Source: Rhabdochlamydiaceae bacterium (GTDB taxonomy: Bacteria > Chlamydiota > Chlamydiia > Chlamydiales > Rhabdochlamydiaceae). From it: DNA of 64,000 nucleotides. Each line of letters opens with the position of its first letter. The first letter of the stretch is position 1. Both the position numbers and the translations under genes were made by a program. Location: contig JAJREF010000001.1 in assembly GCA_047459655.1 (NCBI GenBank), positions 128,001 through 192,000 on the forward strand, read 5' to 3'. The notes under the pieces were generated by a model. That model saw only the letters and a list, made by a program, of their open reading frames with translations, was not told the DNA's origin and did not search any database. Of the stretch, positions 29,082 to 29,798 are shown in pieces.

Positions 29082-29798
29082 ATGATTAAAGCGCGCATTC
29101 AAAGTGAAGCTGTACGTCATAATATCGATCTTTTCCAAAAAAGCATCGATGGGGTATCTACTGAGCGCAAGTCTTATAAAGCATTTGTCAATTGCCAGAC
29201 AGGAACTCTGCGCTTTACCCAGTTTGATTTTTTGGATAAAAACGATTGGAAAGCGATCACTATCTATATAGATCCAAGCACGCATGAAGTAGAAGTCTTT
29301 GATCAGGAAAAAAAGTTTTTTGATTTGACCCACTTTGACACTTTAGCCTATCGAGTGATGGCAGAAACCTTCTATGTTCTTCAATATATTTTAAAGAAGC
29401 TTCCTGACATTAATGAATTACCAATCATGAAATTAGAAACCCCTGGAAGCAGGGCTTTGCATAGAGATCTTGTCTATAGAGCTTGGCACCCGATTGATCG
29501 TATGAAAGCAGAATCTCTTTTATGTGGAAAAGAAACAGGCACGTATATCTTTCGTAAAGATGAGTACGCTAAGACATTGGAGCAGGAACTTTCGACCATT
29601 TTAAAAATATCTGTTAAATGCATGACTCTCACCTACTTGGATGAGCAGGCAGCAATCAAAGATAAGACCCTTGTTCAGTACAAAAATCAATGGCTATTTT
29701 ACGAGGGAGATCCAAGTTTGTCTGGAACAGCTTACGATGATATTGCCTACTTAATAGGATCAAACCAGGAAGTTTTTATTAATCCCCTAGAATATTGA
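29082..29798 (+). CDS. Hypothetical protein with C-terminal SH2-like domain
   Basis: AWHPIDRMKAESLLCGKETGTYIFRK matches the SH2 betaA-alphaA-betaB (FLVR) pattern. Confidence 0.65.
   Translation: MIKARIQSEAVRHNIDLFQKSIDGVSTERKSYKAFVNCQTGTLRFTQFDFLDKNDWKAITIYIDPSTHEVEVFDQEKKFFDLTHFDTLAYRVMAETFYVLQYILKKLPDINELPIMKLETPGSRALHRDLVYRAWHPIDRMKAESLLCGKETGTYIFRKDEYAKTLEQELSTILKISVKCMTLTYLDEQAAIKDKTLVQYKNQWLFYEGDPSLSGTAYDDIAYLIGSNQEVFINPLEY

Follow-up and report, generated by a model that had tools for sequence, protein, structure and literature searches.

Bacterial SH2 domains are known with confidence only in the Legionellales, according to the available sections of PMC6208348, in which the term 'Chlamyd' has 0 occurrences; the accessible part of PMC7542358 gives only SH2 proteins of Legionella. 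In L. dumoffii LeSH1a, Asp replaces Ser at position betaB7, and the protein binds neither a phosphotyrosine (pTyr) peptide nor pTyr proteins. This behavior was traced to the betaB7 Asp by a mutant test, and the residue was proposed to act as a phosphate mimic (PMC6208348, available sections). In the same sections, two SH2 proteins of uncultivated bacteria display no pTyr binding, RavO, with a BC helix of 4 residues, binds well, and the non-binding Legionella members are still translocated (PMC6208348). In the RasGAP C-SH2 domain an Asp holds the FLVR Arg, pTyr being bound via basic residues at betaD4 and betaD6, and the SH2 domains of JAK bind without pTyr (PMC7530234). A literature search, mainly of open-access papers and partly by title, term counts or the start of the abstract, found no paper on chlamydia-encoded SH2 domains. 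NCBI automatic annotation names two members of the family described here 'SH2 domain-containing protein [Chlamydiales bacterium]'.

The window, which is the whole stretch of 64,000 nucleotides analysed here, encodes a protein of 238 aa that is SH2 by fold and homology and, by its pocket features, does not fall in the pTyr-binding class. It resembles the Legionella SH2 proteins in belonging to an intracellular bacterium, in the Asp at betaB7 shared with LeSH1a, and in a helix in the BC region, which in RavO has 4 residues. In contrast, Legionella SH2 proteins, as presented in the available sections of PMC6208348, carry an Arg at betaD6 and are patchy type IV effectors, whereas the chlamydial family has an Arg at alphaA2, is present in single copy in two families, and has a folded N-terminus. 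The matches listed by Foldseek, VIA-align or the family profile include no Legionella chain. With the 'FLVR-unique' RasGAP C-SH2 domain it would share an FLVR Arg held by an Asp, and the R-x-G-D subtype of the family has its Asp at the same BC1 place; the basic betaD4/betaD6 through which RasGAP C-SH2 binds pTyr are absent from the chlamydial family (PMC7530234). The likeness to JAK lies in use of the fold without pTyr, although the JAK SH2 domain is part of a FERM module (PMC7530234).

Fold and domain layout

When the 238-aa protein was searched alone, no SH2 match was obtained from Pfam, where it remained below the PF00017 curated cut-off of 21 bits, or from NCBIfam, and 0 SH2 chains were found in its 10 matches among PDB sequences. 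A single-sequence test would therefore miss the SH2 domain. An identity as Sulfolobus_pRN (Pfam, E 0.004, under the cut-off) was rejected. Relatives were gathered from 200 phylum genomes, 31 of which had a match, giving an alignment of 35 rows. The C-terminal family profile matched p85alpha (E 1.8e-6) and HSH2D (E 4.8e-4) among PDB sequences, and a profile-profile probability of 98.6 was obtained between the family SH2 and 15 PF00017-positive chlamydial domains. The orthologues G183 and G158 lie over the PF00017 cut-off, and P0009 scores 21.6 bits. The first-pass annotation had proposed, among other checks, two computational ones on its SH2-like domain. The PF00017 search returned nothing for the protein alone but matched 13 of the 35 aligned members at E<=1 (best 1.4e-5), and the structural comparison gave an SH2 fold, as detailed below.

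The AlphaFold2 model of the protein has a mean pLDDT of 91.1 and displays a central antiparallel betaB-C-D sheet flanked by alphaA and alphaB. Foldseek gave 88 matches at E<=0.001 (best E 5.9e-5), and the matches listed all contain SH2. Using VIA-align against 48,161 chains, residues 125-238 aligned with SOCS1 at Z 11.1 and rmsd 2.4 over 90 positions, and 50 of the 50 matches listed were SH2 proteins. The SH2 fold of the C-terminal domain is thus well supported as a prediction, because the family profile, the PF00017 members, Foldseek and VIA-align agree. They also bear out the order of elements from betaA to alphaB that had been read from the letters alone; the motifs quoted at that point are present in the + strand ORF, with W135 starting at 29484. 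Of the bounds first given, 29484..29798, the SH2 assignment stands; the 122-residue N-terminal domain and the acidic D160 and D194 had been overlooked.

The fold is alike in eukaryotic Src-like SH2 domains (SOCS1 6c5x, SOCS4 2izv, SAP 1ka6, Csk 1k9a, p85alpha and RasGAP N-SH2), with Z of 10-11 and rmsd of 2.4-3.2 over ~90 aligned residues. They have in common with the chlamydial family the betaA Trp, the alphaA2 Arg, the alphaA6 Glu, the betaB5 Arg and a Thr or Ser at betaC5. The family departs from them in its identity of 11-24%, in having a 14-residue helix where the BC loop would be, in the residues at betaB7 (Asp) and betaD4 (an acid), in a short alphaB, in a conserved acidic loop after betaE, and in a fused bacterial domain that has no match.

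Table 1. Positions of the SH2 gene, its parts and genes discussed with it, in window coordinates.
Feature	Position	Strand	Basis or remark
ORF of 238 aa, N-terminal domain and SH2 domain	29082..29798	+	ORF list; homologues share the same start Met
N-terminal alpha/beta domain, residues 1-122	29082..29447	+	Model, pLDDT 85.9, pTM 0.80
Low-confidence linker between the domains, residues 125-127	29454..29462	+	pLDDT < 50
SH2 domain, residues 127-238	29460..29795	+	Foldseek, VIA-align, family profile, profile-profile alignment
R140, alphaA2 arginine	29499..29501	+	Arg in 146/149 covered representatives
R158, betaB5 (FLVR) arginine	29553..29555	+	Arg in 150/150
D160, betaB7, canonical Ser position; directly precedes the inserted helix	29559..29561	+	Pairs with the FLVRES Ser in the p85 alignment
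Inserted helix (residues 161-174) at the place of the BC phosphate-binding loop	29562..29603	+	DSSP on model
D194, betaD4 (canonically His), and T196, betaD6 (not basic)	29661..29669	+	Profile-profile register, probability 98.6
Conserved acidic loop after betaE, pattern Y-x-D-D-P-x-L (YEGDPSL here)	29700..29720	+	Conservation count
Inc-like neighbor, 370-aa membrane protein, long two-lobed hydrophobic stretches, convergent	29861..30973	-	Hydropathy
PP2C gene	15943-16749		12 kb from the SH2 gene
Kinase-like family	59755-62739	-	Without Pfam or NCBIfam match

In the N-terminal domain, N14 and G41 are invariant and W56, A89 and T96 near-invariant by conservation count. The pTM of the whole protein is 0.56 compared with 0.80 for this domain alone, and together with the low-confidence linker this suggests that in the model the two domains are loosely joined. 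The N-terminal domain gave 0 matches at E<=0.001 in PDB and viral Foldseek searches, no usable match in the Atlas, and nothing below E 0.24 among PDB sequences; its best VIA match was a designed protein (Z 5.4). A likeness to the FliK C-domain (VIA Z 4.1) was not accepted. Within the 200 genomes the domain was found solely in ORFs that also hold the family SH2 (29 genomes), and its modelled structure may represent a new fold. Hydropathy identified a hydrophobic segment in 0 of the 35 aligned members, and no promoter signal above chance was found for the gene.

The phosphate pocket

Pocket positions were taken from HMMER alignments to p85 and from the profile-profile alignment to the 15 PF00017-type chlamydial domains. 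Residues were counted on the best 150 of 302 representatives, and the counts lean high, since the selecting profile favors pocket residues. Both pTyr-type arginines named in the first-pass annotation are present, as is the insertion that it noted after betaB. Of the features canonical for the pTyr class, the betaB5 Arg and a basic alphaA2 can be observed, and the betaB7 Ser, the betaD4 His and the short BC loop are absent. The Arg at betaD6 typical of the Legionella class is also absent, with Lys or Arg at that position in 0 of the 150.

Counted by offset from the Arg, betaB7 is Asp in 105, Gly in 37, Ala in 3, Pro in 2, Ser in 2 and Val in 1 of the 150, and Asp in 28 of the 35 aligned members. 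For 43 of the 45 representatives without Asp at betaB7, an acid is found one place later, at BC1; SH2 domains that bind commonly have an acid there as well. The alphaA6 Glu (E144 here) is present in all 150, a Thr or Ser at betaC5 in 146, and Asp or Glu at betaD4 in 150/150, with Lys, Arg or His there in 0/150. Over six pocket positions the net charge is 0 in 107, +1 in 42 and -1 in 1 representative; at the same positions it is +1 or +2 in 14 of the 15 other chlamydial SH2 domains. The spacing between betaB5 and betaC3 is 23-24 residues in 135 of the 150 representatives, compared with 8-9 in 15/15 of the others. In the acidic loop after betaE, the counts were Y 139, D 136, D 123, P 121 and L 140 of 150. 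Mean identity of the SH2 domain within the family is ~36%. The window protein belongs to the R-x-D subtype, a supported clade (97/96) in a tree built without eukaryotic rows and silent on the donor.

The other SH2 domains of the phylum share the fold. What sets them apart is a spacing of the usual 8-9 residues and, in most cases, Ser at betaB7 (12 of 15; betaD4 is His in 8 of these 15 domains and Glu in 3); they either carry enzyme fusions and low-complexity N-termini or sit in an operon. They comprise L031-L049, PF00017 matches over cut-off from 13 of 200 phylum genomes, and a small SH2 domain in a unit with an OppA-like fusion and a MATE-like gene. Fusion partners include classical tyrosine phosphatases in an SHP-like arrangement (L033, L042, L046), PP2C (L044), a C80 peptidase (L031), ankyrin repeats (L034, L045) and a J-like domain (L032); these multi-domain proteins have the look of genuine secreted pTyr readers. 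Outside the window, its genome encodes a second SH2 protein, a stand-alone one of ~120 aa (G000:C3:164861-165265, - strand), between the OppA-like fusion and the MATE-like gene and with a Hanks kinase just downstream; it has Gly at alphaA2 and betaB7 and His at betaD4. The same unit is found in L035, L038 and L047.

The description of the 238-aa protein as a pTyr reader is consequently doubtful, because of the pocket acids and of the non-binding Legionella SH2 protein with Asp at betaB7 (PMC6208348, available sections). Weakening it further are the lack of a basic betaD6 and the helix in place of the BC loop. The route by which RasGAP C-SH2 is rescued, through basic betaD4 and betaD6, is closed in this family, since betaD4 is acidic in 150/150 and betaD6 basic in 0/150.

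Distribution and gene neighborhood

Within the window's family, a profile search recovered the SH2 gene from 71 of 101 genomes, with one full copy in each. In the phylum sample it was present in 22 of 36 genomes of that family and 11 of 29 of a second family, with two weak matches elsewhere and one genome unscored. In family f1 it was found in 0/6 genomes of genus g2 and, within the phylum sample, in 0/5 of genus g3. Genus g2 keeps the Inc-like gene described below, and all matches to it in genus g3 are weak. When 1.84 billion representatives of clusters at 50% identity were scanned, 302 matched at E<=0.001; at E<=1e-10 there were at least 250 clusters, from Chlamydiota. A named relative is Ca. 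Acheromyda pituitae, placed in Ca. Rhabdochlamydiaceae, which is likely the window's family. The best 150 of the 302 have lengths of 104-316 aa; 130 possess the N-terminal domain and 20 do not, some of which may be fragments. A search for longer forms gave 73 matches, all of 229-290 aa, with no fused enzyme among them. Stand-alone SH2 forms without the N-terminal domain (L022, L024, L028) occur in both families, and no remnant of the domain was found near three short forms. In G213:C100 and G226:C25 the SH2 domain lies in two adjoining pieces, through a frameshift or an assembly error.

The surroundings of the gene were compared in 37 loci, with flanks of 1.5 kb for 30 and of up to 5 kb for 7. 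The most frequent neighbor is a gene for an Inc-like membrane protein (20 loci and 4 divergent copies, including that of the window), followed by proC (17), nitroreductase (14), TMEM14 (11) and superoxide dismutase (11). The 370-aa protein of the window is related to this neighbor family with a probability of 93. The Inc-like family occurs in 79 of the 101 family genomes, often as tandem copies, has two or three long hydrophobic stretches and has no match in NCBIfam. Where the Inc-like and SH2 genes occur together (56 genomes), they lie tail-to-tail, convergent and within 1.5 kb of each other, in 48. An obligate pairing was rejected, since 15 genomes contain the Inc-like gene without the SH2 gene. 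In a further 15 the SH2 gene occurs and no strong Inc-like match is obtained, among them the present genome, whose divergent copy the profile misses. Shared gene order would explain the adjacency just as well as a functional link.

No kinase or phosphatase recurs beside the SH2 gene in the 37 loci. The suggestion that the gene works with the PP2C and kinase-like genes of the window was therefore rejected, as neither is in any recurring cluster of these loci. The kinase-like genes lie 30 kb from the SH2 gene, and their family is present in 142 of 200 genomes compared with 34 that have a strong SH2 match. The present genome has 10 matches to it, most of the window's family 7-13 and genus g3 only 1, and in family f4 it is matched in 0/28 genomes; for the kinase-like ORFs, a weak match to YopO was the only one obtained (E 0.84). 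Over the cut-offs, the genome (82% complete) contains 8 Hanks kinases, one dual-specificity phosphatase and a type III export gate (E 2e-220), and within the same 82% no classical or low-molecular-weight tyrosine phosphatase and no BY-kinase were found.

Elsewhere in the window, housekeeping-type genes are split over two frames at 24213-24653, 32174-33135, 37885-39164 and 44574-46206 (by eye, an ABC ATPase, a TsaC-like gene, a glycerol-3-phosphate dehydrogenase-like gene and a malic-enzyme-like gene), which suggests assembly indel errors. Two paralogous genes of one unnamed family, one of 578 aa and the second in pieces, lie at 33314-37179 on the - strand, with a near-identical repeat of ~166 bases between them at 35024-35417.

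Possible roles of the protein

The explanation that accounts best for these observations, with a probability of roughly 0.45, is that the single-copy chlamydial protein is a pTyr-blind SH2 adaptor acting inside the bacterium, its pocket likely plugged by its own acids. D160 would cap the inserted helix and occupy the place of the phosphate, while D160, D194 and E144 would tie R140 and R158 into a salt-bridge network; such a network would explain the retention of all five residues. The betaD groove and the acidic Y-x-D-D-P loop may bind an unphosphorylated partner, as JAK SH2-like domains do, and the loosely linked N-terminal domain may bind a second, making the adaptor two-headed. The convergently encoded Inc-like membrane protein is a candidate partner. 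On the sequence side, blindness to pTyr is suggested by the Asp at betaB7 in 105/150 members against Ser in 12/15 other chlamydial SH2 domains, and by a pocket charge that is mostly 0 where +1 or +2 prevails elsewhere in chlamydiae. The precedent of LeSH1a points the same way by analogy (PMC6208348, available sections), as does the genome's set of phosphatases and kinases, in which the tyrosine-specific classes named above were not found at 82% completeness. Also consistent with an internal role are the single copy per genome, its place in one block of genes next to proC, a nitroreductase, a superoxide dismutase and TMEM14, and the lack of a fused enzyme in the matches.

The N-terminus bears on location. 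Signals of type III substrates are unstructured, S/T/P-rich N-termini. Here the model is ordered from residue 3 (pLDDT 89-95), and the Ser/Thr/Pro/Asn/Gln share of residues 2-26 is 0.20 in the SH2 family (n=27), compared with 0.41 in the Inc-like neighbors (n=21), 0.45 in the multi-domain SH2 proteins (n=9) and 0.11 in ProC (n=13), a crude test with related sequences, so that p-values overstate. By this crude test, the folded, low-share N-terminus lacks the type III feature, and the predicted fold would favor an internal role.

Several points weigh against the plugged pocket and the internal adaptor. The strongest is that both arginines are near-invariant at ~36% identity, as in a working anion site. 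D160 could be turned toward the helix cap, which would leave a ligand enough space. The N-terminus of a helix can bind phosphate, and RavO with its short BC helix binds well; the non-binding precedent is moreover one protein of another class, the betaD6-Arg type (PMC6208348, available sections). Asp at betaB7 is lacking in 45/150 members, and a betaD4 Glu is shared by 3/15 of the other chlamydial SH2 domains. As regards location, LeSH1a is pTyr-blind yet translocated, and the N-terminal share of 0.20 is above the 0.11 of ProC. Further points on that side are the type III export gate, the 8 Hanks kinases, the dual-specificity phosphatase and the 20/150 members without the N-terminal domain.

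Were the pocket to function, the protein could be an internal phospho-reader in which R140, R158 and the helix N-terminus bind pTyr, or pSer/pThr as in Spt6, with Hanks kinases as writers and a broad PP2C as eraser; the accessible part of PMC5177608 describes a chlamydial PP2C acting on P-Tyr too. This is unlikely, given the acids at betaB7 and betaD4 without a basic betaD6, a neighborhood in which no kinase or phosphatase recurs, and a kinase-like family that is far more widespread than the SH2 gene.

It is slightly less probable still that the protein is a translocated, pTyr-blind effector like LeSH1a and LeSH1b of Legionella, binding a host protein without phosphate. Non-binding SH2 proteins are indeed translocated in Legionella (PMC6208348, available sections), an export gate is encoded here, the gene stands tail-to-tail with an Inc-like gene in 48/56 genomes, and the two genera in which it was not found (0/6 and 0/5) could reflect changes of host. 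The folded and conserved N-terminus with its low S/T/P/N/Q share, the single copy of fixed length among housekeeping neighbors, and the 15 genomes with the Inc-like gene and no SH2 gene argue in the opposite direction.

The original proposal, a secreted pTyr reader tapping host tyrosine signaling, now appears improbable, since it needs both pTyr binding and secretion and there is evidence against each; the N-terminus in particular lends secretion into the host no support. It retains the SH2 fold with both arginines, the tyrosine signaling of the amoebal hosts of related bacteria (PMC4053784, part available), and the effector-like SH2 domains that other chlamydiae encode fused to tyrosine phosphatases. 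Least probable of all is a metal, small-anion or catalytic site formed by E144, D160, D194, two arginines and two threonines: E144, R158 and D/E194 are kept in 150/150, and stand-alone forms (20/150) and metabolic neighbors would suit it, but ordinary SH2 domains likewise keep alphaA6 Glu, betaC5 Ser/Thr and betaD4, D160 is not universal, and the role of a ligand is itself a proposal.

Returning to the pTyr-blind internal adaptor, a broader history can be proposed, somewhat more tentatively. The ancestor of two chlamydial families may have domesticated an SH2 domain as an internal protein, inherited thereafter in single copy. Its pocket would have been rebuilt, a helix taking the place of the loop and acids those of Ser and His, for reading a target different from pTyr, and a domain of new fold would have been attached. 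Together with the operon-bound SH2 family, this would mean that chlamydiae employ SH2 domains in their own cell biology, beyond host mimicry. The family extends bacterial SH2 domains, known confidently only in Legionellales as secreted host mimics, to the Chlamydiota in a housekeeping-like form. If the protein is pTyr-blind and internal, the SH2 fold has been re-used for a bacterial task with a rebuilt pocket, and members that differ in betaB7 (Asp or Gly) and in possession of the N-terminal domain would form a natural series for learning what makes a pocket read pTyr. If pTyr is bound after all, the family would offer a new binding mode and a handle on the question of tyrosine phosphorylation inside chlamydiae.
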